From the NCBI GenBank assembly GCA_038245785.1, contig JBBRSB010000002.1, positions 192,001 through 256,000 of the forward strand: a DNA stretch of 64,000 nt, given 5' to 3'. The translations under genes and the position numbers were made by a program. The notes beneath the pieces are model-generated. The model ran no database searches. It saw only the letters and a list, made by a program, of their open reading frames with translations, and had not been told where the DNA came from. Below are positions 20,031 to 37,187 of this stretch, piece after piece (the first letter of the stretch is position 1; the number at the start of each line of letters is the position of its first letter). This stretch comes from Gloeobacterales cyanobacterium. GTDB lineage: Bacteria; Cyanobacteriota; Cyanobacteriia; Gloeobacterales; PMM-0068.

Positions 20031-20255
20031 TGTATTACAGTTAGGAAGTCCTAGAGACCTATGTGGAAATTTACCAGCAGGAAGGTCGTGCCCTGCCTCC
20101 CGCGCTTGTCCTTCAACTTGCGTAAAACTAGGCTTTATAGGCAGCAGCGCGATTAGCTCAATCATGAGGACGCGACATATAGGATAGAGCACACATCTAA
20201 AAAAGCCACTTTAGCAGGTGTCCAGTGAAAGTATCATGGGATATAGGTTTGAAAG

Positions 20256-20302
20256 ATTTAGGCGGCACCCAGATTCGAACTGGGGGTAAAGGATTTGCAG
20301 TC
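20256..20302 (-). repeat. att site: 47-bp copy of the tRNA-Cys 3' end
   Basis: ATTTAGGCGGCACCCAGATTCGAACTGGGGGTAAAGGATTTGCAGTC is identical to 37012-37058. Confidence 0.93.
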
Positions 20303-20312
20303 TTGTCTCTGC

Positions 20313-20336
20313 TCCCTTCGACTCCGCTCAGGGAGC
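20313..20336 (+). repeat. 24-nt hairpin dispersed repeat, copy 1
   Basis: TCCCTTCGACTCCGCTCAGGGAGC, 10 nt from the att repeat. Confidence 0.8.
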
Positions 20337-20378
20337 AGATTTCAGAAAGAGTCAAAGGCACCGTCTACTAATTTTCTA

Positions 20379-20792
20379 CTAATTCAGGATTTGAACATCA
20401 GGGTAGACAAGGATTTTTCGGTCAGCCGTTAACAACGGGCAACTATGAATTCTGGCTGTAGCCACAATAATTTGGTCTGCTGGGTCATTGTGAAAGCCAA
20501 CTAATTTGGTTGACTCAACCACAATGGGAAGCGTTAAATCGAGCAACTGCACCCCTGGGTAGGCCAAAGCACCTACAAGCCAATCATCAATGGAAACAGG
20601 CAAAGTGAGGCGGCCTTTTTCAACTAACTTGGCAACTTCCCAGCAGGAGAAGATGCTGACTCCCAATCCCTGTGTCCCCTGAGCAGAGTCGAAGGGAGAC
20701 TGATATTGTTGAAGCCATTGTTGATGTTGTTGGGTCAGTCTTGCATCTCCCTGTACCCACCAAACCCAGATATGCGTATCAAGGACAATCAC
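20379..20792 (-). CDS. PIN/VapC toxin with in-frame 24-nt insertion
   Basis: IVLDTHIWVWW, SCWEVAKL, HNDPADQIIVATA, LLTAD; GTG start overlaps the antitoxin stop. Confidence 0.88.
   Translation of the reverse strand: MIVLDTHIWVWWVQGDARLTQQHQQWLQQYQSPFDSAQGTQGLGVSIFSCWEVAKLVEKGRLTLPVSIDDWLVGALAYPGVQLLDLTLPIVVESTKLVGFHNDPADQIIVATARIHSCPLLTADRKILVYPDVQILN
20674..20697 (-). repeat. 24-nt hairpin dispersed repeat, copy 2 (in PIN gene)
   Basis: TCCCTTCGACTCTGCTCAGGGGAC, reading PFDSAQGT. Confidence 0.8.
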
Positions 20793-21034
20793 TGCAACAC
20801 TTCCCACTCCTCCGGAGGGACAGCTGGTTCGAAAGGGCCTTCATAGTGGTATGGCTGCTTGCCACGCAGTGGATACAAAGTGGACTCTAACTGATTCGCT
20901 AGCACTTTTTCTGGCAAGGTACTGGGACGCTCCAGAATAATTATTTCAACGGCATCCCCGGCATGAAATGGTAAATCTCGCAAAATCAAAGTACCGTCTT
21001 CCGCCAAAATTGTTTCCACCTTGTGCGCATTCAT
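20789..21034 (-). CDS. Putative antitoxin of the PIN toxin
   Basis: 81 aa, EDGTLILRDLPFHAGDAVEIIILE; translationally coupled to the PIN gene. Confidence 0.75.
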   Translation of the reverse strand: MNAHKVETILAEDGTLILRDLPFHAGDAVEIIILERPSTLPEKVLANQLESTLYPLRGKQPYHYEGPFEPAVPPEEWEVLQ

Positions 21035-21301
21035 GGCTAGATTCCCTCAATCTGCGGTGACATACTCCTACAGTGTAGGCTTCTCTCGGCTTCGTCTGCC
21101 AGACACGCCTACCGGAAACAGTGACGGTTAGCGATTTTGGGACAATAGAGTTGAACGCTTTGAGACTGATTTTCTGAGCTTACAGGCTAGGCTGGATTGT
21201 CGGGGCATCAATCTGTTGTGGCAAGTCGATGTGTCCGTTGTTTTTGACAAAAGAATTTCCGTAGCCAGAAGTGTTCGTCTCCATTGCGTGCAACAAGTAA
21301 A

Positions 21302-21320
21302 TGAGATACAACGTATCTCA
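21302..21320. promoter_or_regulatory. TA operator palindrome
   Basis: TGAGATAC-aac-GTATCTCA just upstream of the antitoxin gene. Confidence 0.7.
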
Positions 21321-21340
21321 ACCAATAAAAAGAGGTCGCT

Positions 21341-21640
21341 ATGGCTACCCGTTCGACAAGCTCAGGGACCACTACGATGGTTCACGTACGCGTGGACGAA
21401 CGATTGAAGATGCAGGCTACTGAAACGCTTGCTGCGATGGGGTTGTCTGTCTCCGATGCAGTGCGTGTGTTCCTGATGCGCGTCGTCGCCGAGAAACAGC
21501 TCCCGTTCACGCTCAAGGTGCCGAACACCGAAACGCTCGCTGCAATAGAAGAGGCCGACGAGATTATACGGACGCGCCGCACTCGCTTTGCTAATGCCGT
21601 TGAACTGTTCGATGACCTCGAAAAAAACAGCGGCAAGTAA
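21341..21640 (+). CDS. RelB/DinJ-family antitoxin
   Basis: MVHVRVDERLK..LAAMGLSVSDAVRVFL..LPF..PNTETLAAIEEA. Confidence 0.9.
   Translation: MATRSTSSGTTTMVHVRVDERLKMQATETLAAMGLSVSDAVRVFLMRVVAEKQLPFTLKVPNTETLAAIEEADEIIRTRRTRFANAVELFDDLEKNSGK
21347..21370 (+). repeat. 24-nt hairpin dispersed repeat, copy 3 (in antitoxin)
   Basis: ACCCGTTCGACAAGCTCAGGGACC, reading TRSTSSGT. Confidence 0.75.
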
Positions 21641-21845
21641 GCGCGCTACCCTTCGACAAGATTTAGGGGCCACTCTGCTGCGTGCTTCGGATTATACAAA
21701 GTCTTTCCTCAAGGACTGGTGGCCCCTGTAAGCGCAGCTCATGTGCTTGGTCGGGAGCGGTTGTCACGTGCTGGACGGTACGACATGAACCGGGCAAAGG
21801 GCTCATGCTTATCGCCAACAATGGCCCGCTTGGACCTAAGCAGCT
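21612..21845 (+). pseudogene. YafQ-family toxin pseudogene
   Basis: MTSKKTAASKRAT..RASDYTKSFLKDW, then a stop inside an insert, then ERLSRAGRYDMNR and MLIANNGPLGP in shifted frames; 3' end missing. Confidence 0.75.
21648..21671 (+). repeat. 24-nt hairpin dispersed repeat, copy 4 (in yafQ-like gene)
   Basis: ACCCTTCGACAAGATTTAGGGGCC, in frame. Confidence 0.7.
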
Positions 21846-21866
21846 AACGAACAAGCTAACTTTGTT

Positions 21867-22200
21867 TTAGATACGGAATTAGTCAGTCAAATTCTCAGGT
21901 GGAATATGGCAGTATTACGCGAATCGCCTTGGTATCAAGAAATTCGGCAGGAAGGTGAACAAGTTGGGGAAGAAAGGGGCATTCTCAGAGGCACATCTGA
22001 AGGTGCCCTCAAAGAAGCCCAATCCCTCATTCTGCGCCAGCTCACCCGTCGTACTAGTGAAGTGCTCCAGCTTTACAAGCCCAGGTTCAAGCTTTGTCTC
22101 TCTCTCAACTTGAGGCTTTGGGTGATGCGCTGTTGGATTTTTCGGAACCCGCAGACTTAGTGAAGTGGCTAGACGAATACTCTGCCAGAATGAACGACGT
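21867..22200 (+). pseudogene. Rpn/DUF4351-family C-terminal fragment, frameshifted
   Basis: MAVLRESPWYQEI..EAQSLILRQLTRR, continuing in another frame as LSLSQLEALGDALLDFSEPADLVKWL. Confidence 0.75.
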
Positions 22201-22321
22201 CTAATCTCGGCTCCACCTGCTGGACACTGGGACTACTTGCAGCTTGATACGCAATATCTAATGGACTTTCTTAACACGAACTCACGTTAATTAATCTTTT
22301 ACATGTAAATTTGCAATAGTT

Positions 22322-23689
22322 TTAATTTTTCTCAATTATCTCCTTGAACCCAGTATTGTTCCGAATATTGTCAAAATCAGGATCTTTTTTTGCTTTGTCT
22401 CGAAAAGTAGAATCAATGTCAATTGATTGTTTTAGATTTTGAATTGCAAGGCTAGTATCTCCATTTAAGCTAAAACAACAAGCTTTATTAAACCAAGCGT
22501 CAGGACCATCTGGATTCAGTTCAATAGCTTTGCCATAGGCAGCGAGTTCCTCATTATTGCGTTTTAAATTCCCTAGCGTAATGCCTTTATTGAACCAAGT
22601 TTTAGGATCATGTGGATTCAGTTCAATAGCTTTTTCATAGGCAACAAGTGCCTCCTCATAGCGCTTTAAGTTACTTAAAACAATCCCTTTATTAAACCAA
22701 GCATCAGGATCATATGGATTCAGTTCAATAGTTTTCTTGAAGGCATTAAGTGCCTCTTCATGGCGTTTTAGCTCCAATAGCATAAAGCCTTTATTGAACC
22801 AAGTTTTAGGATCATCTGATTTTGGTTCAATAGCTTTCTCATAGGCATTAAGTGCCTCTTCATAGGCAGTGATTTCCTCATTATTACGTTTTAACTTCCC
22901 TAGCGTAAAGCCCTTATTGAGCCAAGCCTCAGGATCATCTGGTTTCAGTTTAATAGCTTTCTCGAAGTCAGTAAGTGCCTCCTCATAAGAGCTTTTGTAT
23001 AATAAAGCTTTACCTTTTTTGACATAATCAGTTGCTGTCAATACAAGATTGGGATAACTATCTTGAAGCATATCAAGTCTAGCAGTAAGTTCTTGAACCT
23101 GTGCCAAGATGTCTGAGTCAACGGATTTTTGAAAATCATCTTTTTTAGATGTTTCCGGGACTAGTCTATCTATTCTTTCTATAATGTCATCTTTTTTCTT
23201 TGCAACTTCTGTAAGGAGATCTTCCACTCTCTTATTAGATACTTTCAAAAGATTATCTATCTGTAATTTCGATCTTTCGTCAATTTCTTTTAAGGCATGC
23301 TTAACTTCTTTTTCTAATTTCTCTTTTATTTCTTTTTTAAATTCTTCTACAATTTGATTTTTAATACTGCCACGCAATAAAAGCAGAAAAATACTGGCAA
23401 ATATAGGTAAAGCTGCTAAAACTGCTAATAAGATCTGAATTAAACCCATTGTCCATCCGAAAGAGCGATCTACTTCGTTCTGGACTCGTTCACGAATTTC
23501 GAGATTATTCTCTAATTTAACTTTTTCAAATTCTTCTTTCACTACAGTCAGAGCTTCTGATTTAGTAACTGGATCAGTTGGCAGAGGTGCTGATAGCTTT
23601 TCCTGTGAAGGTCTTTTCTGAGCTATGGCTGAAGTCGTTACTAACATTGATAAAATGAGGGAAATTAAAATTTTATGTTTGAATCTCAT
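22322..23689 (-). CDS. Membrane-anchored TPR protein
   Basis: Signal-like N-terminus, one TM helix, coiled coil, about 6 TPRs (AWFNKG..EEAL.AYEKAIELNP); AT-rich. Confidence 0.85.
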   Translation of the reverse strand: MRFKHKILISLILSMLVTTSAIAQKRPSQEKLSAPLPTDPVTKSEALTVVKEEFEKVKLENNLEIRERVQNEVDRSFGWTMGLIQILLAVLAALPIFASIFLLLLRGSIKNQIVEEFKKEIKEKLEKEVKHALKEIDERSKLQIDNLLKVSNKRVEDLLTEVAKKKDDIIERIDRLVPETSKKDDFQKSVDSDILAQVQELTARLDMLQDSYPNLVLTATDYVKKGKALLYKSSYEEALTDFEKAIKLKPDDPEAWLNKGFTLGKLKRNNEEITAYEEALNAYEKAIEPKSDDPKTWFNKGFMLLELKRHEEALNAFKKTIELNPYDPDAWFNKGIVLSNLKRYEEALVAYEKAIELNPHDPKTWFNKGITLGNLKRNNEELAAYGKAIELNPDGPDAWFNKACCFSLNGDTSLAIQNLKQSIDIDSTFRDKAKKDPDFDNIRNNTGFKEIIEKN

Positions 23690-23723
23690 TTGAAGAAAAA
23701 TCCCGAGGTGAACGAGGAGGGTG

Positions 23724-24656
23724 TTAGGTTGATTCTTCATCAAAGTAGTCGCTGTCAATCTTTGGAATCTTAACGGTGCGTGCAGAAACCCCGACCTCAT
23801 GATCGATCATTAGTTCGGCAAGGCGCGGACCATCAACGAGGACAACACGCTCGACTGACTTCGCGAACTCGATGGCCTGCGCAGTGTAGCCCGAAGTCGT
23901 AATGAAGACGCCTTTGTTTGCACGCTGTCCCGCGAGAGCACCGTAGAACGCTTGGACTTCTGGACGACCCACCGTACCTTGCCAACGCTTCGCCTGAACA
24001 TAGACCTTTTCAAGGCCAAGCTTGTCTAGTGAAATGACTCCATCGATTCCGCCGTCGCCAGACCCACCAACGCGCTGAAGATCAGTACGACTTGCCCCAT
24101 ATCCCATACGGTGGAGTAGATCAAGAACAATGGTTTCAAAGAACGAGGGCAGTACGGACGCGAGGGACTCAAGTAGCTCAGTAGCGACCGAGCGACGCAA
24201 CTCGGAGAGGGCTTGGCCAAGCCGATCATCGGGACTAGCTACAGCCGATTCCACCGCCTGCATCTGGATCAAAGACGACGAGGCGAGAGATTCGCCACTG
24301 AGCGGTAGTTTCAGCCGCACATCATTGAAACCCATGGCCAGTTGCTCAACGTCTTTCGGCGATAGTTGTGTAGGGTGATTAGCTACGAAGTCAAGGCCCA
24401 GTTCCGTTGGTTGCCAGAAGCCCCGGCGCGGGCTGCTCGATAGACCAGCGCGTTTCAACCTGTCATGAGCCCAGCCAGCGCGGTTCTTGTAGATTGGCTG
24501 CGCGCCACTTGGGAGAAGCTCTTGACGGTCCGAATCGGACACACCGAGTGCCTGTGCAGCAGCCTCATGAACTTCGCGGGCGGGCGCACCGCCTGGGTGA
24601 GTAGCCAGGAACCGAAGGACTGGTTCGATAAACTTATCGTAGGTGGGGACGGCCAT
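23724..24656 (-). CDS. mrr: Mrr type IV restriction endonuclease
   Basis: Mrr_N domain (NRAGWAHDRLKRAGL..PRRGFW) and catalytic GDGGIDG..YVQAKR. Confidence 0.93.
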   Translation of the reverse strand: MAVPTYDKFIEPVLRFLATHPGGAPAREVHEAAAQALGVSDSDRQELLPSGAQPIYKNRAGWAHDRLKRAGLSSSPRRGFWQPTELGLDFVANHPTQLSPKDVEQLAMGFNDVRLKLPLSGESLASSSLIQMQAVESAVASPDDRLGQALSELRRSVATELLESLASVLPSFFETIVLDLLHRMGYGASRTDLQRVGGSGDGGIDGVISLDKLGLEKVYVQAKRWQGTVGRPEVQAFYGALAGQRANKGVFITTSGYTAQAIEFAKSVERVVLVDGPRLAELMIDHEVGVSARTVKIPKIDSDYFDEEST

Positions 24657-24677
24657 GCTGTTTTGTCGATAGAAGGG

Positions 24678-24899
24678 TTAGGGTTTGGCAAGGGAGATTT
24701 CCTTGAACTGCATATCGTCGATGACCTCATCGAAGCGACGTTTTTTGCCGACACCAGCGAGTTCAGGGACGAGGGCCTTCTGGAGGGTGTGGGCATTGGC
24801 ATTAGTGCGGACGGCGGCAAGGTGGGTTTCCAACTAGTCCACTAGGACCATTAGTTGATCGACTTTGGCCACGTTCCGGCGTTGTTCAGGAGGGTTGGG
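24678..24899 (-). pseudogene. Type I RM specificity subunit (HsdS) C-terminal remnant
   Basis: Minus-strand frame PPEQRRNVAKVDQLMVLVD*LETHLAAVR..ALVPEL resembles the HsdS conserved helix; internal stop. Confidence 0.65.
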
Positions 24900-25523
24900 A
24901 TGAAAACTATGAACCATGCCAACACCTAAGAAGAAGTCAAGCTTAGTGTGCCCAGTAACTGTACCTAACTGTCACAGGCTCTGATCTACTTAGTCGTCTC
25001 TGAAAATTCAAAACCCCCAGTAAAATCAAGCATTCCAGCAGAAAGATACCGATAAAAATTGGAAGAAAATGCTCAAGCCTTTGTAAATTCTAGTGAAAAC
25101 GTTAGTTTACATGGAGCCTCTACTCTACTATTACAGCGGTCTATAGCATGGGATGATTGCTCGGCTGAACGAACTAAGCTGCAGTGCTGCTCTGCAAGCC
25201 AACCGAGCGCAGACAAACTGGGATCTTGTTATCTGGGAGAACCGCTAGAGTCAGCTTCTACCCAAACTTTTTGAGATGCGTCCCTGACTGTCATAACTAA
25301 ATTGTTAGACCCGCCTTTTAAGAGGGAAATATCTTTATGGAAGAGTCAAAGTATTCACCCAATGATGATGCCTGTTCGACTACATAAAGACACCTCTCTA
25401 CTGATTGGAGAAGTTCGACAGCGAAATCGAAATTACGACTAAATTTTGTCCTAATACAAAATAACTTTGTTCACTCTGCCTTAAATTCTCTATAGCTCTG
25501 TAAACCCAAAAAGAGTTCTTCTC

Positions 25524-28500
25524 ATGAAGCCAGTCCGTGATTTGTGTGAGTTGCAAAGCAATGCCCTCGATTTCCGGGTGAGTGATGGTATTGAGGATCT
25601 AAACAAGCTCACTGAAGATGAAGCCCAGGGGTTTTCTTTTTTCGAGGCTTCGTTCATCACAGCCGGAATGCATAAGCTTGTTTCTGATGGCTTAGCAAGG
25701 CTCTCAGGTCGTTCTGGCAGCGCAGTTTATCATCTTAAGCAGGCGATGGGTGGTGGTAAAACCCACTTGCTCTCAGGTTTTGGGCTGGTTGCACGCCATC
25801 CGAAGGTCCGTGAGCGCTACTTTGCTGATGTTGCATCCGGTCGAGAATTTGGAGCTGCCAAGCTAGCGTTCTTCAATGGCCGAAATAATCCCGCAGGATT
25901 CTTTTGGGGCGAGATCTCAGAGCAACTAGGCAAACCTAACTTTTTTGAGCCTGGTACAAAAGCTCCTGATGAAAAAAGTTGGTTAAAACTCTTCTCTGGT
26001 GATGAACCCATCCTGATCCTGCTAGATGAGATGCCGCCCTACTTTCATTACTATCTAACTCAAAGCTTAGGATCTGGGACCATTGCGGATGTGGTTACCC
26101 GTGCTTTTGCCAACATGCTCTCGGCGGCAAGGCAAAAAGCAAAGGTCTGCATCGTTATCTCTGACCTCGAAGGTCAGTATCAGAGTGCGAGTCATCTGAT
26201 CAACCGTGCCTTGGATGACGCTAGGGCTGAGGCTGGGCGTCAGGAAGTGGCAATTACGCCAGTGGATCTCTCAGGGAACGAGATCTATGAAATTCTCAAG
26301 AAACGGCTTTTCAAGAAGCTGCCCGATCAATCCACCATCGATGACATTGCCGCCAAGTACGGTGAGCTCCTCACGGATGCGGCTAAATCTAACACTGTTG
26401 CCCGTAGTGCCGAGTCGATTGCCGAAGAAATTTCTGCCACCTATCCGTTTCACCCGCGCCTTAAAAACCTTTTTGCGCTTTTCAAAGAAAACTCTAATTA
26501 CAAGCAAACTCGCGGTCTGATGGAGCTAACCTCGCGGTTACTTAAGTCAGTTTGGGAAGGACGCAGCTCAAGTGCGTTTCTGATCGGCCCGCAGCACTTT
26601 GACTTAGGTCTGGACGATGTACGGGATAAGCTGATTGAGATTTCAGCAATGCCCGATGTGATCGCTAAAGACCTTTGGGATACTAATTCTGCTGCCCATG
26701 CTCAGGTGATCGACCTTAATGCCAATGGCTCTGAAGCAAAAGATGTCGGTGCCATTCTCTTCACCTCCAGCCTCTCGACCGCCGTTAATTCAGTTAGGGG
26801 TCTAACCCGCGCAGAAGTGCTTGAGTACTTGGTTGCCCCGTTGGTGGATATCTCCCGCTGCAATAAGGCATTCAGTGACCTTTGCGAGAGCTCTTGGTAC
26901 ATCCACCGGACGCCTGACGAGAAGTACTACTTCGATAAGCAGGAAAATCTCGGCAAGATGCTCCAGGACATGGCGCGTCGTGCCCCAGAAAACAAGGTTG
27001 AAGAGCTCAAGCGCAATCGCATCAAAGAGCTCTTCAAGCCGCAGTCGAAGATTGCCTATGAAGACGTTTTGCCGCTACCGCAGCTCGACGAGGTGATCAA
27101 CGAAGTGCGGAACCGTCGAGTGCTGTTGGTTGTTGAGCCCGATGGCAAGCTTCCTCCGGAAGAAGTGAAGCGCTTTTTTGAAAGCCTCAGCCAACGCAAC
27201 AACGTCTGCATCCTGACGGGCGAACAAGCGGCTGTTGCTAAAGGCAAACTTACTGAAGCGGCAAGGAATCTTTACGCGGTAATGCAGGCTGAGGCCCAAC
27301 ACAAAGTAGATTGCAAAAGCTCCCAGTGGGCCGAGTTCGATTCCAAAAAAGCGACATATGACTCTAACCTGACCCAAGTAATCATTGGTGTCTACGACAA
27401 GTTGTTGGTGCCTGTTCTGAAGCCTGGTGACACAGAGCCAGTGCTGGAGTCTCGTTCCCTCAAGAAAGAAGGGTTTAAGCCCACTGAAGGTGCCCGTCGG
27501 GTTGAAGAAACCTTGACAGAAAACCCGAAGAAGCTTTATGTCGAAGTTTCGAGCAACATGGACACCCTCCGTGCAATGGTCGAGCAGCGGATTTGGGGCA
27601 ACTCGGACCCAGCCCGATGGACCGATGTGGTTTCGAGCGCTGCCGAAAACTGCAAGATGCCCTGGTTACCCTCCTCTGGCCTCGAAGATATCAAGAAGCA
27701 TGCCATCGCCACGGGTCTCTGGGAAGACAAAGGCGGTGGCTATATCTCCAAGTCTCCAGCCCCCAAAACAACAGGGGTGCAAGTAAGTGCCGAATCACGG
27801 CCTGACGACGATGGCCATGTAGTCCTAAAAATAAGTACTGTAAACGGTGGCCCCGCACCCAAAATTTACTATGCCGAGGATGCAAATGTTTCCGAATCAT
27901 CCTCGGTACTTGATGACGATAGGCTAAAGACTAAAGCCTTGCGGGTACGGTTTATCGTCCACGATCCGAGCAACCATTACATAACAGGTGAACCTTATAC
28001 CTGGACCAATGAACTGACGATTCGCGCAAACCAATACATCGAGAATGGTAAGCGCAAGGTGAAAATCCTTGTGGCACCAGCAGGGGCCAAAGTTAAATTC
28101 ACGCTTGATGGTTCAGAGCCCCGCAATGGCCAGACCTACAGCGAACCCATCGAGATTGGCGACAACGAGGTGCGTCTGCTGGTATTTGCCGAAGCTGATG
28201 GCCTAGAGGCACGCCAGAATTTTACCTACCCACGCATGGGCGATAACCAAATCAAAATCGATCCTCAGGCACCCGCTAAGTTCAAGGCCAGTCGGTGTGC
28301 CCGCCTGAGCTCTCGTACCGATGCTTACCAGGGATTGCAGCAGGCAGCAGAGGTAGGTGCCAGCTTCGAAGATGTGGACATCAGGCTGACGGCAAAAAAT
28401 GGAGCCACGATCAACTATCTTGCCGTCCGGCAGACCTTATCGGCACAGCGTGTGACCCAGTTGATTGAATCGCTTGGTCAGGATTTACCTATCGAACACG

Positions 28501-28613
28501 AAGTCACTCTCTCATTTCGTGCCGCCAATTTTTCGTCTGGCTATGACCTCAAGACCTTCTGCGATAAGTGGAACATCAAACTCAGCCAGGAAGAGGTTGA
28601 ACAATGCGCCTAA
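25524..28613 (+). CDS. DUF499 AAA+ ATPase (anti-phage-associated)
   Basis: LKQAMGGGKTH Walker A, LILLDE Walker B, YPFHP, QTRG; Fn3/chitobiase-like FTLDGSEP near the C-terminus. Confidence 0.88.
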   Translation: MKPVRDLCELQSNALDFRVSDGIEDLNKLTEDEAQGFSFFEASFITAGMHKLVSDGLARLSGRSGSAVYHLKQAMGGGKTHLLSGFGLVARHPKVRERYFADVASGREFGAAKLAFFNGRNNPAGFFWGEISEQLGKPNFFEPGTKAPDEKSWLKLFSGDEPILILLDEMPPYFHYYLTQSLGSGTIADVVTRAFANMLSAARQKAKVCIVISDLEGQYQSASHLINRALDDARAEAGRQEVAITPVDLSGNEIYEILKKRLFKKLPDQSTIDDIAAKYGELLTDAAKSNTVARSAESIAEEISATYPFHPRLKNLFALFKENSNYKQTRGLMELTSRLLKSVWEGRSSSAFLIGPQHFDLGLDDVRDKLIEISAMPDVIAKDLWDTNSAAHAQVIDLNANGSEAKDVGAILFTSSLSTAVNSVRGLTRAEVLEYLVAPLVDISRCNKAFSDLCESSWYIHRTPDEKYYFDKQENLGKMLQDMARRAPENKVEELKRNRIKELFKPQSKIAYEDVLPLPQLDEVINEVRNRRVLLVVEPDGKLPPEEVKRFFESLSQRNNVCILTGEQAAVAKGKLTEAARNLYAVMQAEAQHKVDCKSSQWAEFDSKKATYDSNLTQVIIGVYDKLLVPVLKPGDTEPVLESRSLKKEGFKPTEGARRVEETLTENPKKLYVEVSSNMDTLRAMVEQRIWGNSDPARWTDVVSSAAENCKMPWLPSSGLEDIKKHAIATGLWEDKGGGYISKSPAPKTTGVQVSAESRPDDDGHVVLKISTVNGGPAPKIYYAEDANVSESSSVLDDDRLKTKALRVRFIVHDPSNHYITGEPYTWTNELTIRANQYIENGKRKVKILVAPAGAKVKFTLDGSEPRNGQTYSEPIEIGDNEVRLLVFAEADGLEARQNFTYPRMGDNQIKIDPQAPAKFKASRCARLSSRTDAYQGLQQAAEVGASFEDVDIRLTAKNGATINYLAVRQTLSAQRVTQLIESLGQDLPIEHEVTLSFRAANFSSGYDLKTFCDKWNIKLSQEEVEQCA

Positions 28614-29155
28614 AGACCCCCACAGCAGGTTTTGGAGCGCCTACCGAATTTGGTGCCCATATCTTTCGGGTGGTGATTCCGGCTGCCAAGGCCGAAAGCG
28701 TGAGTGTAGTTGAAGACTATGGCTTGATAGGTGGTGAGGTGATTCGGGTAGTACTGCCACGATTTGCTTGGTCAGGTATTGCCGAAGCCGCCCGCAAAGA
28801 CTTCAACCAGCGCCTCAAAGCTCAAAAAGTGCTCACAGGAAGCTGGAAAACTGGCGATGTGGTGATTGACCGCATCTTGGGTAAAGAGCTGTGTGTACTA
28901 GCCTGGGCCGCTGAAAAAGCCGACAGCGCAGAACTGCCCGTGATTTGCAAAAAGTGGACGGCGCTACGCCCCGAAGAACGCTGGTGGTTGTATTCGATGA
29001 CCGCTTCTGAGGCTGGTTGCGCTGATGATGTTGGGCGCGGTTGGCGTAGAGCATTACATGCTGCGCTTTCAGATCCTGGCAGCATCGAAATTGAGCAGGT
29101 GAACCGCAAATTGAAGCGCCAGTCCGTCGCCTTTGAAACCCCATCACTATTCTAA
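28604..29155 (+). CDS. DUF3780 family protein
   Basis: FNQRLK..LGKELCVLAWA..LRPEERWWLYSMT..GWRRAL. Confidence 0.85.
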   Translation: MRLKTPTAGFGAPTEFGAHIFRVVIPAAKAESVSVVEDYGLIGGEVIRVVLPRFAWSGIAEAARKDFNQRLKAQKVLTGSWKTGDVVIDRILGKELCVLAWAAEKADSAELPVICKKWTALRPEERWWLYSMTASEAGCADDVGRGWRRALHAALSDPGSIEIEQVNRKLKRQSVAFETPSLF

Positions 29156-29166
29156 AAGGCTGCTCT

Positions 29167-32142
29167 ATGCCCGTTGAACCTTATTCGCTCAAAGATGCTC
29201 CAGCCTTGATCGAAAGCCTGTTTCCCGCCCAGAAAATCTCCTTGGAATCGTACAAAGAGCAGATGGCAGGGAGCGGCAAAACTCTTACAGCCCTTGGTAG
29301 CTACTGGAAAGGCCGTAAGTCCCTAGTTCTCAACAAAGCATGTATTCTAGGCTGCCTTCTGCCTGCCACTAATGATCCCGAAAAAGATCTCGAGATTTAC
29401 GAGCTATTGATGGGTATGGATAACCTATCTTTTGCCAAGCGTTTGAAGACTCGACTCAAGCCTGCAGAGATACTTTCCTTAATAAAGCTTGACAACATCT
29501 ACCAGTACTTTGATGTTAAGCCAGAGGGTAGCCTGCCGTTGCATTCTCCGGTTAACGTTAATGACTACGCAGGTACCAAAGTCACCTGGAAAGCGAGCAC
29601 TTCTGAGGAACAGAAAAGCATTTTAGAATCCAAAGTTTTGGCACAGAAGTCATTTCACCAATTGGTAGATGAAGGGCACCGTGCTGAAGAAATCGGCGAT
29701 ACCATCTATGACCATGTGTGGGACATTGTGAATGCCCATCTGGGTACCCAGGCTAATTCAATGCCCGAGTTGGTAGAACAGCTGGGCATCATGCGGTTCG
29801 GTCATCGACCAAGGGTTGCAGATACTTTTGCAGGGTCTGGGCAAATCCCGTTTGAGGCCGCGCGACTAGGTTGTGATGTGCAAGCCTCGGATCTCAATCC
29901 GATTGCCTGCATGCTGTCCTGGGGGGCTTTCAATATTGTGGGTGCCAGTCCCGAAAAACGAAAGCTTATCGAAGCTGAGCAGACAACACTTGCTAGTAAA
30001 GTTGAGTTCGCAATTGATGCCTTGGGCATTGAGCAGGATGGGAAAGGCTGGGCGGCCAAGGTTTACCTTTACTGCGTCGAGGTCAGATGCCCTGAAACAG
30101 GCTGGATGGTGCCTCTGTTGCCGACTTTTGTTGTCAGCAAGGGTTACAAAGTTATTGCACGTCTAATGCCGGATGTGGTTAACACACGTTACGACATCGA
30201 AATTATTTCAGGTGTCAGCGAAAAGGAACTAAGCGCTGCCGAAAAGGGTACAGTGCAATCGGATGGGCGTGGTTCTGATCCTTACATGACCCATTCTGTC
30301 GATGGCGTCACCTACAAAACCAAAATATCGACCTTAAGGGGCGATTATCGTAAAGATGACGGAGCTAATGGCAACCGCTTGCGCAGGTGGGAGGTGTCTG
30401 ACTTTAAGCCAAGACCTGACGACATTTTTCAGGAGCGGTTATATACAGTGCAATGGATGCGTGCTAAAGCATCAGGAAAGTTGTTTGATTATGAGTTCCG
30501 GTCAGTCACTGAAGACGATCTTAAGCGTGAAAAGATTGTCGAAGATTATGTGGATAAGCACCTTGCTGAATGGCAGGAGAAAGGCTGGGTGCCGGATATG
30601 CGAATCGAACCTGGTGATAAAACTGATGAGCCCATTCGTACACGGGGCTGGACCCATTGGCATCATTTGTTTAATCCACGGCAGTTGTTGGTAATAGGTC
30701 TTGCGAGAGCTAGTTGCACAGCAGCAACTGCATTGAAGATGGCTTATATGGCAAACTATGGATCAAGATTATGTAGATGGAATAAATCTCGAGATAACGC
30801 ACTAGATGTTTTTTACAATCAAGCGCTAAATACAACTTTAAACTATTCCTGCCGTGCATCTTGGACTCTTATAAAATTTATTAAAGACCAATTTCTTTAC
30901 AGTGAAAACCCTATCAATACATTAGTAACAGTAGAAAATATCGAAGCAAATAGTATCTCAAGCCATTCGGATATTTTTGTAACGGACCCACCTTATGGTG
31001 ATGCAGTTAAATACGAAGAGATTCTTGAGTTTTTCATTGCCTGGTTCCAAAAAAATTTACCCCCTGAATTTGCTGACTGGGTTTGGGACAGCCGCCGAGC
31101 GCTAGCGATCAAGGGCGAAGATCACAATTTTCGCTTGGCCATGGTAGCCGCCTATAAGCGTATGACCGAGTGCATGCCTGACAACGGTATCCAGGTCATC
31201 ATGTTTACTCACCAGAGTGGCACCATCTGGGCTGACATGGCTAATATTGTCTGGGCATCAGGCTTGCGTGTGACTGCGGCATGGTACGTGGTTACCGAGA
31301 CCGATAGCGCATTGAGGGAAGGCAGTCATGTCAAAGGCACCGTGCTACTAGTGCTGCGCAAACGCACCGAAAACCTGAGTACCTTTCAGGATGATCTTGC
31401 CTGGGAACTAGCCGACGAAGTGAAGCGACAAATTGGGACACTCACTGGGCTGGATCAAAAGGTCAAAGCCAAGCAGCGGGGCATGAATCTGTTTAATGAT
31501 GCCGACCTGCAAATGGCAGGGTATGCTGCAGCCCTTCGGGTGCTGACCAAATACGCGAAAATTGATGGTCGTGAGATGCCCCAGGAAGCCCTTCGTCCTA
31601 GGCAAAAAGGCGTCAAGACCATTGTGGACGAGCTGGTAGAGTTCGCTGTCAGCACTGCCAACTGTTTCTTAGTTCCAGAGGGCATCGAGGCCCAGGTATG
31701 GGATAACCTCAATGGTGCCGAGCGTTTTTATCTGAAGATGCTCGACCTTGAAGCCAAAGGCGAAAAGAAACTCGAAAACTACCAAAACTTTGCCAAGGCA
31801 TTCAAAGTTGCGAACTGGAAACCCCTGATGGGCTCTGAGAAGGCAAATACTGCCCGCTTGCGTTCAGCCGTAGAGTTTAACAGCAGCGAAATGTCACCCG
31901 GAGCTGAACTCACCAACACCGTGGTTCGTGGCTGCCTTTATGGCATCATGCAGTTGGTCAAAGACAAAGAATCCGACGTGGTGCTCGAAGGCTTACGCGG
32001 CAACCTGAGCGACTACTACCATTCGCGTGAGCGAATTATCGATATAGCCGATTACCTGAGCCGCAAGCTCGAATCCATCCGCCCCGAAGAGTCACGTAAC
32101 GCAGCCATACTGCGCGACTTGGTTCGCAACGAGCACTCTTGA
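29167..32142 (+). CDS. DUF1156 adenine DNA methyltransferase
   Basis: YWKGRK, SAM-binding DTFAGSGQIPFEA, catalytic TDPPY. Confidence 0.9.
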   Translation: MPVEPYSLKDAPALIESLFPAQKISLESYKEQMAGSGKTLTALGSYWKGRKSLVLNKACILGCLLPATNDPEKDLEIYELLMGMDNLSFAKRLKTRLKPAEILSLIKLDNIYQYFDVKPEGSLPLHSPVNVNDYAGTKVTWKASTSEEQKSILESKVLAQKSFHQLVDEGHRAEEIGDTIYDHVWDIVNAHLGTQANSMPELVEQLGIMRFGHRPRVADTFAGSGQIPFEAARLGCDVQASDLNPIACMLSWGAFNIVGASPEKRKLIEAEQTTLASKVEFAIDALGIEQDGKGWAAKVYLYCVEVRCPETGWMVPLLPTFVVSKGYKVIARLMPDVVNTRYDIEIISGVSEKELSAAEKGTVQSDGRGSDPYMTHSVDGVTYKTKISTLRGDYRKDDGANGNRLRRWEVSDFKPRPDDIFQERLYTVQWMRAKASGKLFDYEFRSVTEDDLKREKIVEDYVDKHLAEWQEKGWVPDMRIEPGDKTDEPIRTRGWTHWHHLFNPRQLLVIGLARASCTAATALKMAYMANYGSRLCRWNKSRDNALDVFYNQALNTTLNYSCRASWTLIKFIKDQFLYSENPINTLVTVENIEANSISSHSDIFVTDPPYGDAVKYEEILEFFIAWFQKNLPPEFADWVWDSRRALAIKGEDHNFRLAMVAAYKRMTECMPDNGIQVIMFTHQSGTIWADMANIVWASGLRVTAAWYVVTETDSALREGSHVKGTVLLVLRKRTENLSTFQDDLAWELADEVKRQIGTLTGLDQKVKAKQRGMNLFNDADLQMAGYAAALRVLTKYAKIDGREMPQEALRPRQKGVKTIVDELVEFAVSTANCFLVPEGIEAQVWDNLNGAERFYLKMLDLEAKGEKKLENYQNFAKAFKVANWKPLMGSEKANTARLRSAVEFNSSEMSPGAELTNTVVRGCLYGIMQLVKDKESDVVLEGLRGNLSDYYHSRERIIDIADYLSRKLESIRPEESRNAAILRDLVRNEHS

Positions 32143-34853
32143 TGGGACTACAACGGTTTTCATCACGCCGACAAAGGCTCGACACGACTTTTCTGGCACC
32201 GAAGCTGCAGGGTGCCAAATCGTACCGCCGGATTGCTGGCTATTTTCGCTCATCCATCCTTGAGCTGGTTGGCGAAGAAATCGGCGATATTCCCGTAGTC
32301 TGCATTGTCTGCAATAGCGAACTTGACCTAAGGGATATCCAGGCTGCCAAGGCTGCCCGTGAAGCCGCCCTCAAAGAAAAATGGAATGAAACGCCGATTC
32401 AGGCTGAAGCGATTTTTCATCAGGACCGATACCAACGACTCTATGAGCTACTACGGAGTGGGCGGCTCAAAATCAAGGTAGTTCCCAAAGACAAAGTTTT
32501 TCTGCACGGCAAGGCTGGTGTGATTGAGCTTGCTGACGGTACCAAAACCAGCTTTTTGGGGTCCGTCAACGAAAGCCGCTCGGCCTTTGCCACCAATTAC
32601 GAAATCCTCTGGGAGGACAACTCGGCTGAGGCGGTGGCCTGGGTAGAGGAAGAGTTTGAAGCCCTCTGGAAGGATGGCCACGACCTGCCCGACGCCATCA
32701 TTGAAGAGGTTGGGCGTATTGCCAGTCGGGTTGAGGTGCGTTTCCCTGAACTAAAAGATCGCGAAATCCCTGGAGCCGTGATGGTGGAATCACCGCTTTA
32801 TCGACAGGGTGAGCAGCTTCAGCCCTGGCAACGGGCATTCGTGAGCACGTTTCTTGACCATCGTGAGCGCTATGGCAAGGCGCGTTTGCTAATTGCTGAT
32901 GAGGTGGGTCTAGGCAAAACCCTATCAATGGCCACTAGTGCCTTGGTCTCGGCACTTTTGAACGATGGCAAGGTGCTGATTTTGTGTCCATCGACGCTGA
33001 CATTACAGTGGCAGGTAGAGCTCAAAGACCGATTGGGAATCCCCAGTGCGGTGTGGGTCTCTAACAAAAAGCACTGGCTTGACCCTGATGGGCATGTGAT
33101 TCCTACGCGTGGCCCTGAAGATGTGATTCGTTGCCCCTATCAGATCGCGATTGTTTCGACGGGTTTGATCATCCAGCCGACTAGAGAACGCGAGGTTTTA
33201 CTCACCGCCAAATATGGCACTTTGGTACTTGATGAAGCCCATAAAGCCAGACGTAAAGGTGGTTTTGGGGATGGTGCTAAATCACCTAACAATCTTTTGG
33301 AATTCATGCTCAAGGTTGCACTACGCTGCCGCCATTTGATCTTAGGGACGGCCACACCGATTCAGACAGATGTCGCAGAGCTTTGGGATTTGTTGTCTAT
33401 TTTGAATGAAGGCGCAGATTTTGTTTTGGGTGGGTATGCAAGTCCCTGGAAAAATGCCGATCAGGCGCTGCACTTAGTGACTGGCAAGCGAGGTCCGTCC
33501 GATGCGCGTGAGACATGGGAACTCCTGCGGAGTCCACTGGTTTGTTCGGATGGGTTTGATAACGGAAGGTTTGACATGCTGCGGAATGCCCTGAGCCTGG
33601 CACGCGGTGAATTTTTCAGTTCATTGCCTTATGGTGATCTGTCGCCCATCGAGCAATACCGGGTCGATGAGCTTATAGGTGACTGCGATTTCTTTCGTCG
33701 CAACAACCCGATTGCTCGTCATACCGTTCTTAGACGGCGGCGAGATCTTGAGGATAAGGGCTTGCTGGAAAGAGTAGCGGTGGACATCCATCCAAATCCT
33801 AATGGGCAGAACCATGCCTATGCGGGTATTGCCTTCATCGATGGCCTGGGCCTCCTGACCAACGCACCCTTTCAAAATGCGTACGAAGCGGCAGAGCGTT
33901 TTACCGAACTATTACAAAAACGAACTAAGGCAGCCGGGTTCATGAAAACTCTGCTTCTGCAGCGGATTTGCAGCAGTTTTGCTTCGGGTCGCTCAACGGC
34001 TCAGGCAATGCTCGACAAAAGGCTTTTGGAAGAAGAAGAGAATGCTCATCTCGTGTTAGAAGAACTTTCGAAACTTACACCAGCCGAGGCTGAGCAACTA
34101 GCGGCCATTACGTTTGAGCTCTCAAGGCCTGAGGCAACTGACCCCAAGCTGGATGCAGTGCTAACGTTTTTGTCTGAGGTCAAATCAGCGGGCAAAACGT
34201 GGCGTGAACATGGCTGTATTGTTTTTAGCCAATACTATGACACCGCTGATTGGGTGGCCTCAAAAATTGCCCAGCGTTTCCCTGAAGAGGTGGTAGCGGT
34301 ATATGCGGGAGTGGGAAAGAGTAAGCTTTATCGAGCCGAACGGGCCGTTGCCGTAGAACGCGAAGCAATTAAACAGTCTGTCAAAAAGAGAGACATTCGC
34401 CTGGTCGTTGCTACGGATGCAGCCTGCGAAGGGCTCAATCTACAGACCCTTGGCACGCTCATTAATGTAGATCTGCCCTGGAATCCATCGCGCCTTGAAC
34501 AGCGACTTGGGCGTATCAAACGCTTTGGACAGGCACGAAAGTCTGTGGACATGCTCAACCTCGTTTATCACGAGACCATGGACGAGAAAGTTTATCAAAA
34601 GCTTTCAGAGCGTATGAGAGACAAGTTCGATATTTTTGGGGGCATGCCGGATGTCATTGACGATGACTGGATTGACGACATTGAAAAATTCGAACGCCAG
34701 GCGGATAAGTACATCGAGATGCGTAAACAGCAGAAGGATGTATTCGCTGAGAGATATGGCTCTGACTTCGACGTGAATCGTGAACGGTGGGAACTCTGCA
34801 CCAAAGTTCTTTCGAGAAGCGATATTGATCATGTACTAGAACGACCTTGGTAA
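32139..34853 (+). CDS. PLD-nuclease / SNF2 helicase fusion
   Basis: LHGK..GSVNES (HxK..GSxN); DEVGLGKT, DEAH, TATP, EQRLGRIKRFGQ. Confidence 0.9.
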   Translation: MMGLQRFSSRRQRLDTTFLAPKLQGAKSYRRIAGYFRSSILELVGEEIGDIPVVCIVCNSELDLRDIQAAKAAREAALKEKWNETPIQAEAIFHQDRYQRLYELLRSGRLKIKVVPKDKVFLHGKAGVIELADGTKTSFLGSVNESRSAFATNYEILWEDNSAEAVAWVEEEFEALWKDGHDLPDAIIEEVGRIASRVEVRFPELKDREIPGAVMVESPLYRQGEQLQPWQRAFVSTFLDHRERYGKARLLIADEVGLGKTLSMATSALVSALLNDGKVLILCPSTLTLQWQVELKDRLGIPSAVWVSNKKHWLDPDGHVIPTRGPEDVIRCPYQIAIVSTGLIIQPTREREVLLTAKYGTLVLDEAHKARRKGGFGDGAKSPNNLLEFMLKVALRCRHLILGTATPIQTDVAELWDLLSILNEGADFVLGGYASPWKNADQALHLVTGKRGPSDARETWELLRSPLVCSDGFDNGRFDMLRNALSLARGEFFSSLPYGDLSPIEQYRVDELIGDCDFFRRNNPIARHTVLRRRRDLEDKGLLERVAVDIHPNPNGQNHAYAGIAFIDGLGLLTNAPFQNAYEAAERFTELLQKRTKAAGFMKTLLLQRICSSFASGRSTAQAMLDKRLLEEEENAHLVLEELSKLTPAEAEQLAAITFELSRPEATDPKLDAVLTFLSEVKSAGKTWREHGCIVFSQYYDTADWVASKIAQRFPEEVVAVYAGVGKSKLYRAERAVAVEREAIKQSVKKRDIRLVVATDAACEGLNLQTLGTLINVDLPWNPSRLEQRLGRIKRFGQARKSVDMLNLVYHETMDEKVYQKLSERMRDKFDIFGGMPDVIDDDWIDDIEKFERQADKYIEMRKQQKDVFAERYGSDFDVNRERWELCTKVLSRSDIDHVLERPW

Positions 34854-35019
34854 GCTCATCAAAGATTTCGTACAAACCAGATCTGCAGAGTGTTGACAGC
34901 GGCTTAGCACATTAGCCTCAATACTTTCTAACAATAACCACCCATACTATCCACCTCTTTTTATCTCTTATCCTCTGTCTCTTCCCTCTTCCTAGCTTGA
35001 CACTCTCACCCAACTTTTA

Positions 35020-35039
35020 TGTTATATTTTTATATAACA
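35020..35039. promoter_or_regulatory. mazEF/pemIK operator palindrome
   Basis: TGTTATAT-tttt-ATATAACA downstream of TTGACA (34997). Confidence 0.7.
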
Positions 35040-35060
35040 GAGACTTTAACGAGGTGCAAT

Positions 35061-35318
35061 ATGCATACAGCCAATCTCCGCAAGGTCGGTGGCTCGGTCA
35101 TGTTGGCTGTGCCGCCTGCGATCCTCGAACTGCTGCATCTACAGGCGGGGGCAACGGTTCGTATGGCTGTCGAAAGCGGCTGCCTGATGATTGAACCGCT
35201 ACCGCGCCCGCGCTACAGTCTAGATGAGCTTCTGGCCCAATGTGACGCATCGGCTGAACTAACTGAGGAAGATCGGGAATGGCTCGATGCTAAGCCAGTC
35301 GGCAACGAGCTTTTGTAA
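35061..35318 (+). CDS. MazE/PemI (AbrB-fold) antitoxin
   Basis: LRKVGGSVMLAVPP..YSLDELLAQCD..GNELL. Confidence 0.9.
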   Translation: MHTANLRKVGGSVMLAVPPAILELLHLQAGATVRMAVESGCLMIEPLPRPRYSLDELLAQCDASAELTEEDREWLDAKPVGNELL

Positions 35319-35674
35319 TGGATCGCGGTGATATTTACCTGGTCTCTCTTGACCCGACTTCTGTCCATGAACAGCCCTTCGATAAGACTCAGGAGCCACA
35401 AGACACGCGGCCCGTTTTAGTCGTCTCACCAGCTGCCTTTAACCGTTTAACGAAAACTCCTGTAGTGCTACCGATCACCAGCAAGGGGAACTTTGCTCGC
35501 ACGGCAGGCTTTGCTGTGTCGCTGAAAGATGCCGGGACAAAAACAACGGGTGTTGTACGGTGTGATCAACCCCGCGCCCTCAATCTTGACTCGCTCCGTG
35601 CCCGCAAGCTTGAAAGTTTACCCGCATCGATCATGGATGAAGTGCTGGCGAAGCTGGCCCCCATTTTTGATTGA
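35318..35674 (+). CDS. MazF/PemK toxin with in-frame 24-nt insertion
   Basis: RGDIYLVSLDP..HEQ..RPVLVVSP..PIT..CDQPR. Confidence 0.88.
   Translation: MDRGDIYLVSLDPTSVHEQPFDKTQEPQDTRPVLVVSPAAFNRLTKTPVVLPITSKGNFARTAGFAVSLKDAGTKTTGVVRCDQPRALNLDSLRARKLESLPASIMDEVLAKLAPIFD
35374..35397 (+). repeat. 24-nt hairpin dispersed repeat, copy 5 (in MazF gene)
   Basis: GCCCTTCGATAAGACTCAGGAGCC, reading PFDKTQEP. Confidence 0.75.
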
Positions 35675-35892
35675 ACGGTTGCTCTGTGATTGACAAAGCC
35701 ACGCTATGCGAATCAGCCTGTGGTCTGCATCTGTGGGGAATACTTGCTGATTGCATCCAACAGCTTCTGGGCCTCTCTTTGCGCTCGGCTTCAATATATA
35801 TGTGAACTATGGCTGGAAAGAATTATGGGAACGTGGTGATGAACCAAGAAGGAGAACATAGGATTAGAGCAGATGGTCAAAGGATAAATATC

Positions 35893-36120
35893 ATGAAAAT
35901 CGATACTGAAGGAAGGATTCCCCTTCCCTTCGAAATTCGAGAAAAGCTTGGTCTACAGCCCGGTACAGAGATCCAAATTGAGGTCATAGGGAATACGCTG
36001 CAAATCCGCAAACCCATAAGCCCCGGTCGAGGAGCGCAAGTAATCGCGGCAATGAAAGGTAAAGCAACAAACCGACTGACCACTGACGACATTATGCAAC
36101 TCACTCGTGCAGATCCATGA
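35893..36120 (+). CDS. AbrB/VapB-type antitoxin
   Basis: GRIPLPFEIREKLGLQPGTEI..TTDDIMQLTR. Confidence 0.85.
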   Translation: MKIDTEGRIPLPFEIREKLGLQPGTEIQIEVIGNTLQIRKPISPGRGAQVIAAMKGKATNRLTTDDIMQLTRADP

Positions 36121-36497
36121 CCCATATTCTGGTTGACAGCAACGTGGTCCTAGACATTCTGACCGAAGATCCCCAGTGGTTTACATGGTCAGCGCAAATG
36201 CTAGCCGATTACGCCGATCAGGGAGATTTGGTGATTAACCCTATCATTTATGCCGAAATTTCCATGGGATTCAATCAACCCGAAGAATTCTTTCGCCGAG
36301 ATCCTTTACCTTACGCCGCAGCTTTTCTCGCAGGACAGAGCTTTCTGCAATACCGTCGTCGCGGTGGTGAGCGGCGATCGCCTCTACCTGACTTTTACAT
36401 TGGCGCTCATGCTGCTGTTGCAGATATGCCCCTACTAACCCGCGATGTCAACCGTTACAAGACTTACTTTCCATCAGTGAAATTGATTGTGCCCTAG
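36117..36497 (+). CDS. VapC PIN toxin
   Basis: LVDSNVVLD, YAE, PLPDFYIGAHA, LLTRD. Confidence 0.88.
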   Translation: MTHILVDSNVVLDILTEDPQWFTWSAQMLADYADQGDLVINPIIYAEISMGFNQPEEFFRRDPLPYAAAFLAGQSFLQYRRRGGERRSPLPDFYIGAHAAVADMPLLTRDVNRYKTYFPSVKLIVP

Positions 36498-36606
36498 GTC
36501 TCGGGGTAGGTCACTTGAAAATTTGTGACACTAAACAAACAAAACCAGGGAGTAAAGGACTACTCAAGATGTCAGAATCGGTCAAGGTTTCAGCAAGTTG
36601 CAGGGC

Positions 36607-36630
36607 GGTCCCAGAGCCTTGACGAAGGGC
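36607..36630 (-). repeat. 24-nt hairpin dispersed repeat, copy 6
   Basis: GCCCTTCGTCAAGGCTCTGGGACC, in frame (ALRQGSGT) in the Uma2 C-terminal part. Confidence 0.75.
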
Positions 36631-36725
36631 ATTATCTTTTTGGCGATAAACCTCAATCTGTTTTTTTCTCCAATCTGCGATCCATTACTCCGTGACGTTT
36701 TGCGCCGAATATAAATCTAGCTTTA

Positions 36726-36749
36726 GCCCTTCGAGAAGCCTCAGGGACC
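36726..36749 (+). repeat. 24-nt hairpin dispersed repeat, copy 7
   Basis: GCCCTTCGAGAAGCCTCAGGGACC at the Uma2 deletion junction. Confidence 0.78.
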
Positions 36750-37015
36750 GCCAATTGGGAACTATCTGACCACAAATCTAAGAGCGTATAAAGTTTGCCG
36801 CATACCTCTTGATGCCTCCAGTGTGGTGCTCTGGTCACGAATAGGTCTCCGTCAATTATTTCGTAACGGTTCCCGTTTTCCTGTAGGTCCAGCAAATTAG
36901 CACTTGTCCACTTTAAAATGGCCTTGGTCATAGACCCTTCTAAGCAGTCCTGTCATTCTACGTTCTGCTTCTATATAAGGCTCTGAGTCTCTACTATTCA
37001 GGGTTTCAAAAATTT

Positions 37016-37086: not shown

Positions 37087-37187
37087 TTATCGACTCAAGC
37101 TTTGAGCCAAGCAATGGTAACACAGTCTACACGCTCTCCCATACGGGAATAAAGAGCGCTGTGTTTATTCTAAGTGGACAAACTTGA

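Follow-up and report, generated by a model that had tools for sequence, protein, structure and literature searches.

What moves a piece of DNA only 24 nucleotides long, and why should copies of it lie inside the small toxin and nuclease genes of a single genomic island? The locus that raises these questions belongs to a Gloeobacterales cyanobacterium (assembly GCA_038245785.1; genome G000, 5.0 Mb, of the same class as Phormidium) and falls in a stretch of 64,000 nucleotides (contig JBBRSB010000002.1, here C2, 192001-256000) that we call the window and whose own numbering is used wherever no other contig is named. An island in the window is bounded by an att-like duplicate (20247-20303) on one side and a tRNA-Cys gene (37015-37087) on the other, and an original prediction, made from the letters of the sequence, had placed seven copies of a hairpin unit in it, had likened the unit to the mobile small dispersed repeats (SDRs) of cyanobacteria, and had tied it to toxin-antitoxin (TA) genes. 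To our knowledge, how very small repeats move (SDRs, untagged repetitive extragenic palindromic sequences or REPs, and Rickettsia palindromic elements or RPEs) has been an open question since 2008. The answer developed here is that the unit is a precisely inserting micro-element, that its core also flanks a clade of small GIY-YIG genes in many phyla, that the nuclease of this clade may well be what moves it, and that the tie to TA genes largely fails.

Anatomy, fold and insertion sites of the unit

The unit is 24 nt long, a 20-nt hairpin followed by a 4-nt RCCR tail, and it reads CCCTTCG, a loop of 5-6 nt, CTCAGGR and the tail, which is mostly RCCA or RCCG. The hairpin core is TTCG-N5/6-CTCA, enclosed by an outer stem that covaries. 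A profile trained on the genome's own copies returns 45 matches of at least 20 bits from the 5.0-Mb genome and none from the reversed genome; one of these, at C9:6902, was rejected as a chance match, both congeners aligning there without a gap, and another, at C3:17943, has no ortholog for comparison.

The proposal that this is a mobile, SDR-like micro-element is borne out by clean pairs of empty and filled sites. Within the genome, empty sister sites exist for the insertion sequence (IS) elements IS110 and IS256 (three sites), for the IS200 tnpA gene and for an unnamed multicopy element, each with a single gap of 23-24 nt, and two further clean pairs come from tyrS against a congener and from the PIN toxin gene of the island against an allele in run X3. 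The same comparisons correct the register of the seven copies, which had been set 1 nt too far upstream. No target duplication longer than 1 bp was seen at the empty and filled sites, and the combination of terminal inverted repeats with a multi-base target duplication, expected of a miniature inverted-repeat transposable element or a classical IS, was not found, the gaps being 23-24 nt. The target consensus is weak, apart from a C, which directly follows the unit at 22 of the 27 distinct sites but is seldom found directly 5' of it; since the unit itself starts with C, the insertion of a whole 24-nt unit 5' of a C is equivalent to that of a 23-nt unit with a 1-bp duplication of the C. Because the length is a multiple of three, the unit is often tolerated inside genes.

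Other hairpins are favoured as targets, including the unit's own loop and the end of IS200. One site, at the tip of the hairpin in the IS200 end, is unoccupied in 5 copies and occupied in 4, and the fills, of 23, 24, 45 and 96 nt, have both ends in common; the longer ones hold nested relatives, including those of a 21-nt family (27 matches, against 0 in the null) that also enters mostly 5' of a C. The unit builds head-to-tail and Russian-doll arrays: among 117 distinct metagenomic sites, 33 fall inside the core of another copy and 21 have a head-to-tail neighbour, with the proviso that two matches in ribosomal protein S17e look native, so that some of the 117 are chance.

Several related arrangements were seen elsewhere. 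Russian-doll composites of up to 96 nt occur in IS remnants on C43, C47, C49, C64 and C72, and these combine at least four micro-element families (the 24-nt unit, the 21-nt GCCGGACA family, a GTGAG/CTTAC hairpin and the GTGAGCTCAG family). At C1:243396, C15:39660 and C34:52417, a separate multicopy palindromic repeat has its loop taken over by long-stem copies, either single or as inverted dimers; other copies of that repeat carry different loop modules. Phage-like DNA is a carrier too: several tandem tailed units are present on a viral contig and on related contigs from metagenomes (L151, L153, L161, L225 and L260).

The predicted hairpin finds its support in covariation of the outer stem and not in folding energy. 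Of the four copies folded under standard energy rules, three proved no stabler than shuffles (z -0.4 to 0.9), and the copy at 20314 alone folds well (z about -2.3). Among 236 distinct copies, the four positions of the outer stem form Watson-Crick pairs in 223, 216, 215 and 185, pairs of several types being present, and the covariation score was reached by none of 500 shuffles, although the shuffled alignment consisted of 52 of 70 loci, hand-picked, and 4 copies from the window, and the unselected 236-copy counts are the fairer measure. On the minus strand, two G.A pairs, often with a C-GNA-G mini-loop, would arise from the fixed inner part; such pairs and mini-loops are stable, and standard folding does not score them. 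The loops, finally, resemble one another more within a contig, and this holds for pairs at least 20 kb apart as well (p 5e-5, 16 pairs), which suggests local hops within the lineage. Two other accounts of the loops were tried and rejected: copying of the loop from the flank of the target would suit pemK but fails at the other sites read, and the notion that varied loops are stamps of different donor hosts is disfavoured by the likeness of loops on the same contig across unrelated elements.

A GIY-YIG clade flanked by the repeat core

In many phyla, the genes of one UPF0213-like GIY-YIG clade are flanked by the core of the unit. In the present genome, a small GIY-YIG gene on C16 (63344-63880; L016), frameshifted near codon 23, has the hairpin on both sides, a long-stem copy just upstream and an inverted, heavily nested copy downstream. 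Among 301 genomes of the phylum, all 11 homologous GIY-YIG loci, read by eye, have the core on at least one side. The same holds far beyond the phylum: in the best 80 loci of a GTDB set, drawn from Cyanobacteriota, Bacteroidota, Pseudomonadota, Chloroflexota and others, TTCG-N5/6-CTCA lies within about 300 bp of the gene in 78 and on both sides in 52, against 7 of 135 distal windows and 2 of 80 reversed flanks. Beside ordinary UPF0213 genes the core was found in 0 of 30 cases; the split between these and the clade in the tree, for which 37 of 90 hairpin-linked loci were used, is partly by construction, the queries having been separate. The clade protein folds confidently in structure prediction, its nearest solved relatives are UPF0213 proteins (E 4e-20), and NCBIfam holds no named family for three clade members. 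Conserved positions include a Tyr, an Arg, a His and a Glu, presumably the catalytic residues. The pattern is present in 29 of 30 gene-bearing genomes, in up to 126 copies, with 126 and 69 copies in two Nostoc genomes. Separately, the nested block downstream of the C16 gene was seen to recur at C8:119860.

On balance, we regard it as somewhat probable that the unit is a non-autonomous element of single-stranded DNA (ssDNA), mobilised by the clade nuclease and retained where it does no harm. By analogy with SsnA, the nuclease of the Ssn system compared below, the enzyme would bind the folded hairpin in ssDNA, supplied by the lagging strand, transforming DNA or IS200 intermediates, and would cut beside it; the strand bound would probably be the one able to form the tandem G.A pairs and the C-GNA-G mini-loop. 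The freed unit, or a nick-primed copy of it, would then enter a single-stranded site close by, with either the nuclease or a host ligase making the join. Local hops and self-targeting could in this way build dense clusters such as those at the island ends, and the resemblance of the tail and the next C to the target would explain tandem and nested growth. In the present genome the family is probably idle, since the nuclease gene is broken. The broader proposal, that this clade is the missing mobiliser of SDR-type elements of 21-24 nt and excises and re-inserts single hairpins in ssDNA with neither a transposase nor a target duplication, is offered tentatively, as a possibility that falls short of probable.

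A number of observations weigh against assigning movement to the nuclease. Co-occurrence in the phylum sample, where the gene is present in 4 of 7 genomes with at least 50 copies and in 6 of the 294 others, speaks for the nuclease, but that threshold was set after the data had been seen and kin are not independent. The repeat is found in 86 of the 301 genomes and the gene in only 10; three high-copy genomes (172, 121 and 54 copies) gave no match to the gene, and in two genomes that bear the gene the pattern used has 0 copies. The TA genes contain a subtype (RCCR tail, variable loop) other than the one beside the genome's own nuclease gene; the TA-gene subtype does adjoin a GIY-YIG homolog in L055 and L087. 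Most copies in the window have no significant stability under standard folding, the loop-similarity signal is carried mainly by contigs C2 and C7, and tailed copies are rare in ordinary spacers, which tolerance alone does not explain. SsnA itself, in the accessible part of the paper on it (PMC11893778), is shown only to cut, not to insert.

The many genomes with the repeat and without the gene also speak for a different role of the nuclease, that of a partner and not a mover. It would be an SsnA-like ssDNA restriction factor directed against transforming DNA, and the hairpins would spread through host replication errors (template switching, slippage and short-patch conversion between hairpins) and by hitchhiking on IS elements and cassettes. 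Nesting, tandem arrays and different loops at one site all fit repair-type copying, hitchhiking is observed, and SsnA lowers transformation by hairpin-bearing DNA (PMC11893778, in the part available). What such copying would have to produce, however, is one and the same pair of ends, each time followed by a C, at targets as unrelated as tyrS, pemK and IS256, none of which has homology to the unit; this regularity suggests an enzyme that defines the ends, and we consider the account rather unlikely.

An enzyme that defines the ends could also be a HUH (Y1) transposase, either IS200 TnpA or a REP-associated tyrosine transposase (RAYT), mobilising the unit in trans by peel-and-paste. An ssDNA hairpin and the absence of a target duplication are hallmarks of such chemistry (PMC6006769 and PMC11893778, in the portions accessible), the genome has six Y1_Tnp matches, some of them intact, and the IS200 end is an insertion hot spot. 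Against this, the unit interrupts tnpA genes in this genome instead of flanking them: no Y1 or HUH gene flanked by the repeat was seen among the five of six Y1_Tnp loci examined, all IS200-like. A crude HUH-motif scan, moreover, finds such an open reading frame (ORF) within 1.5 kb at 0 of the 80 GIY-YIG loci, and the tight linkage is to the GIY-YIG clade, which leaves mobilisation by a Y1 enzyme improbable.

For mobilisation by the clade nuclease, the finding offers a candidate enzyme, its cognate substrate, the exact ends of the element, a target rule and a hot spot, and the question of movement thereby becomes testable with oligonucleotides and one protein of 100 residues. It suggests, next to Ssn, a second clade of site-specific ssDNA nucleases, and also a source of insertions of 7-8 residues in proteins. 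If the clade is indeed the SDR mobiliser, the units would be among the smallest enzyme-driven mobile DNA units known, could lengthen proteins such as tyrosyl-tRNA synthetase by 7-8 residues, and might serve the host by marking and disabling its resident IS and TA genes.

TA genes, genome-wide census and the ends of the island

In the island, all seven copies are present where they had been reported, and three further related inserts had been overlooked. The left boundary is the att-like duplicate of the 3' part of the tRNA-Cys gene (20247-20303, minus strand; 57 bp, 96% identity with 37002-37058), and the tRNA-Cys gene itself (37015-37087, minus strand) is the integration site and the right boundary; no integrase was seen in the island, and the tRNA was the sole Rfam match over 19900-37300. 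The copy that had been noted 10 nt from the att repeat lies just inside the duplicate (20314-20337, plus strand); it is of the long-stem subtype with loop ACTCCG, and its loop and stem match copies adjoining GIY-YIG genes. The PIN/VapC toxin gene (20379-20792, minus strand; PF01850) carries an in-frame unit at 20673-20696, on the minus strand, that adds exactly 8 residues to a variable loop of the protein, as predicted, a 98%-identical allele in run X3 being without the 24 nt. The homologous proteins P0242 and P0243 are empty and the metagenomic P0244 has the same insert. All 66 near-invariant residues are kept, and the toxin is possibly intact, judging from its sequence. In the RelB/DinJ antitoxin gene (21341-21640, plus strand; PF04221), the unit at 21348-21371 (plus strand) occupies codons 3-10, at the very start of the gene and before an in-frame ATG; the insertion is real, although the net gain against two homologs is 7 codons and not the 8 that had been claimed.

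For two other genes the claim of in-frame insertion falls, both being pseudogenes with dead frames. The yafQ remnant (21612-21870, plus strand), truncated and with an early stop when aligned with the plasmid homologs L001 and L002, holds a unit at 21649-21672 (plus strand) and one of the overlooked inserts, a composite at 21720-21755 (minus strand) in which a second hairpin is nested inside the unit and which brought the stop codon. The uma2 pseudogene (36535-36931, minus strand) is split, frameshifted and without its middle, Pfam positions 53-112. One unit (36606-36629, minus strand) lies in the out-of-frame C-terminal fragment, where run X3 has a copy too; the other (36727-36750, plus strand) stands at the deletion junction, as had been noted. 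It most likely replaced the missing segment, since run X3 has 178 other letters at that unit and the 59 missing Pfam positions correspond to 177 nt. The remaining overlooked inserts are members of the 21-nt family, both on the plus strand: an intergenic one at 21085-21105 and one at 22206-22226, 3' of a DUF4351/Rpn-like fragment so labelled from matches to paralogs in the genome and from ORF text, Pfam having given no match.

The toxin gene that had been called MazF is of the PemK/Kid type (35318-35674, plus strand; PF02452). Its unit (35375-35398, plus strand) adds exactly 8 residues in frame in the HEQ..RP loop, the protein having 118 residues where 117 of 119 homologs have 110, and the added segment is not native to the family, as 0 of the 119 homologs have it. 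Four of 68 near-invariant residues are changed, more than in any of the 119 homologs, and pemK is thus decaying regardless of the insert. The same insert is found on a 90%-identical contig of run X2, and contigs of that run (90-92% identical) show too few gaps to be without the pemK, PIN and relB inserts, so these are old and travel with their cassettes. The conjecture that cassettes transport the repeat is upheld by this and by one IS110 insertion present in three copies.

Does the unit then target TA genes, or do hosts keep inserts that detune working toxins? In favour of this stand the facts that five of the seven copies first listed lie inside TA genes or uma2, that the PemK insert sits in its HEQ..RP loop, and that PIN keeps every conserved residue and has its insert recurring in other strains; positive selection for knocking out selfish genes could, besides, account for the scarcity of copies in ordinary spacers. 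The census argues otherwise. In the genome, 34 of 35 PIN loci and 12 of 13 PemK loci are empty, as is every Uma2 locus save one out of about 49 (represented by 50 matches), so that the unit is in 1, 1 and 1 of them, and the single Uma2 carrier is broken; a further PIN remnant on C14 also carries the unit. Among 64 metagenomic ORFs scanned, the longer ones of 101, 25 have a Pfam match and 3 are transposases, none is a TA gene, and the rest are mostly housekeeping genes, for example those for PriA, GMP synthase, MurB and Dus. More copies lie in IS elements than in TA genes, and as to detuning, yafQ and uma2 are dead and pemK has decayed independently. TA targeting is thus largely refuted, and with the detuning of working toxins we judge it very unlikely; that decaying island DNA gathers insertions is ordinary.

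Where the unit does accumulate is seen from the genome as a whole. ORFs of at least 200 residues are depleted, with 11 of the 45 copies in 74% of the genome, and multicopy DNA is enriched, with 18 of 45 in 5%. Sorted by location, the 28 sites with a tail (three IS110 copies counted once and one doubtful match dropped) divide into 11 within IS elements, 6 that lie inside TA genes or next to them, 4 within remnants of uma2 or of Rpn-like genes, one each in the unnamed multicopy element and in tyrS, and 5 at other places. That housekeeping ORFs are free of the unit, as had been stated, is true of the window but not of the genome, where the essential tyrS (C29:23887-23910; L021) has a clean in-frame 24-nt insert absent from both congeners; a Ser/Thr kinase gene (C40:21594-21725; L024) has an in-frame inverted pair of units with a spacer, about 114 nt net, which its congeners are without. 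The unit is purged from most core genes and accumulates in IS remnants, TA remnants and island ends. Enrichment in the island was also foreseen, and 7 of the 45 profile matches do fall in its 16.7 kb against 0.15 expected, a post hoc figure for copies that are not independent. All seven are confined to the two end segments, the left end being more densely packed with such motifs than any other part of the genome, and these ends are explained by tolerance, self-targeting and local hops together. The Mrr gene (23724-24656), a TPR gene and, as reported before, the intact four-gene system of DUF499 ATPase, DUF3780, DUF1156 methylase and PLD-SNF2 helicase (25524-34853, plus strand) are free of the unit; the operon and the Mrr gene likely form a defence system.

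Three further features of the neighbourhood may be recorded. Record 9 of run X2 (window 20555-24550) is a rearranged island in another strain, where relB and the Mrr gene are joined; in record 16 of run X3 (window 21094-35740) the left end abuts the uma2/tRNA end and the central system is absent. A PyrF-PyrE fusion gene lies at 18403-19878 and has a paralog on C24.

Comparison with known systems

Six strings of 15-16 nt from the repeat matched nowhere among the papers searched, and a literature search that left subscription papers mostly outside yielded no description of the repeat or of its link to the GIY-YIG clade; on any GIY-YIG link to repeats of the REP or SDR type, the Ssn paper alone was relevant. 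Of the classical systems, the REP/REPIN-RAYT and IS200/IS605 elements are, in the accessible descriptions, alike in relying on ssDNA hairpins, in making no target duplication and in having a partner gene flanked by the repeat, but here the flanked gene is a GIY-YIG hydrolase and not a HUH transposase, and a single 24-mer moves. The CGTC-tagged REPs and the Rickettsia RPEs are likewise short hairpins with an unpaired tail that form dimers and have in-frame intragenic copies (PMC3733652, in the part accessible), and for the CGTC REPs the available part of that paper (Di Nocera et al. 2013, PMC3733652) has no dedicated transposase identified. In contrast to the CGTC and GTAG REPs as described in such accessible text, the unit has neither tag and its stem is interrupted, not a perfect one of 6-9 bp; six peptide signatures gave 0 matches in four supplement files of PMC3733652.

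In layout the system is like that of the Ssn nucleases (cd10448) with their NTS/SRM hairpin repeats, as described by Chenal et al. 2025 in the accessible part of PMC11893778: there as here, a small single-domain GIY-YIG gene is flanked by an oriented hairpin of 20-30 nt that is also dispersed in the genome and has a short non-palindromic tail, in the order repeat, gene, repeat. The repeat itself is another, the published SRM pattern occurring in 2 of 80 loci of about 3.3 kb each, and of 18 SRM-pattern matches in the present genome none is a copy of the unit, which differs further in its fixed inner sequence and varying outer stem. By its nearest structures the clade protein looks UPF0213-like. 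Pseudanabaena yagii, which holds the clade member P0127, is entered in Supplementary Data 4 of PMC11893778 as NO for an SsnA homolog, NO for strict cd10448 and YES for loose. What the available text of that paper describes for Ssn is cleavage and an influence on transformation, with no report of solo units inserting precisely, and NTS seldom lie in genes.

In its behaviour the unit is like the SDRs, being a dispersed, structured unit within 21-27 nt that nests and inserts precisely. The families SDR1-8 of Nostoc, from the 2008 work of Elhai and colleagues, are reportedly structured, 21-27 nt long and nested in one another and in mini-transposons, and they are said to lie in frame in genes after precise insertion by a mobiliser that was not identified. 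The unit may be one of SDR4-6 or a relative. SDR5 inserts precisely in HIP1 (PMC4390886, in the part accessible), and the targets of the unit, unlike those, are not tied to HIP1. The unit differs from the SDRs, too, in being found in many phyla and in being linked to a nuclease gene.

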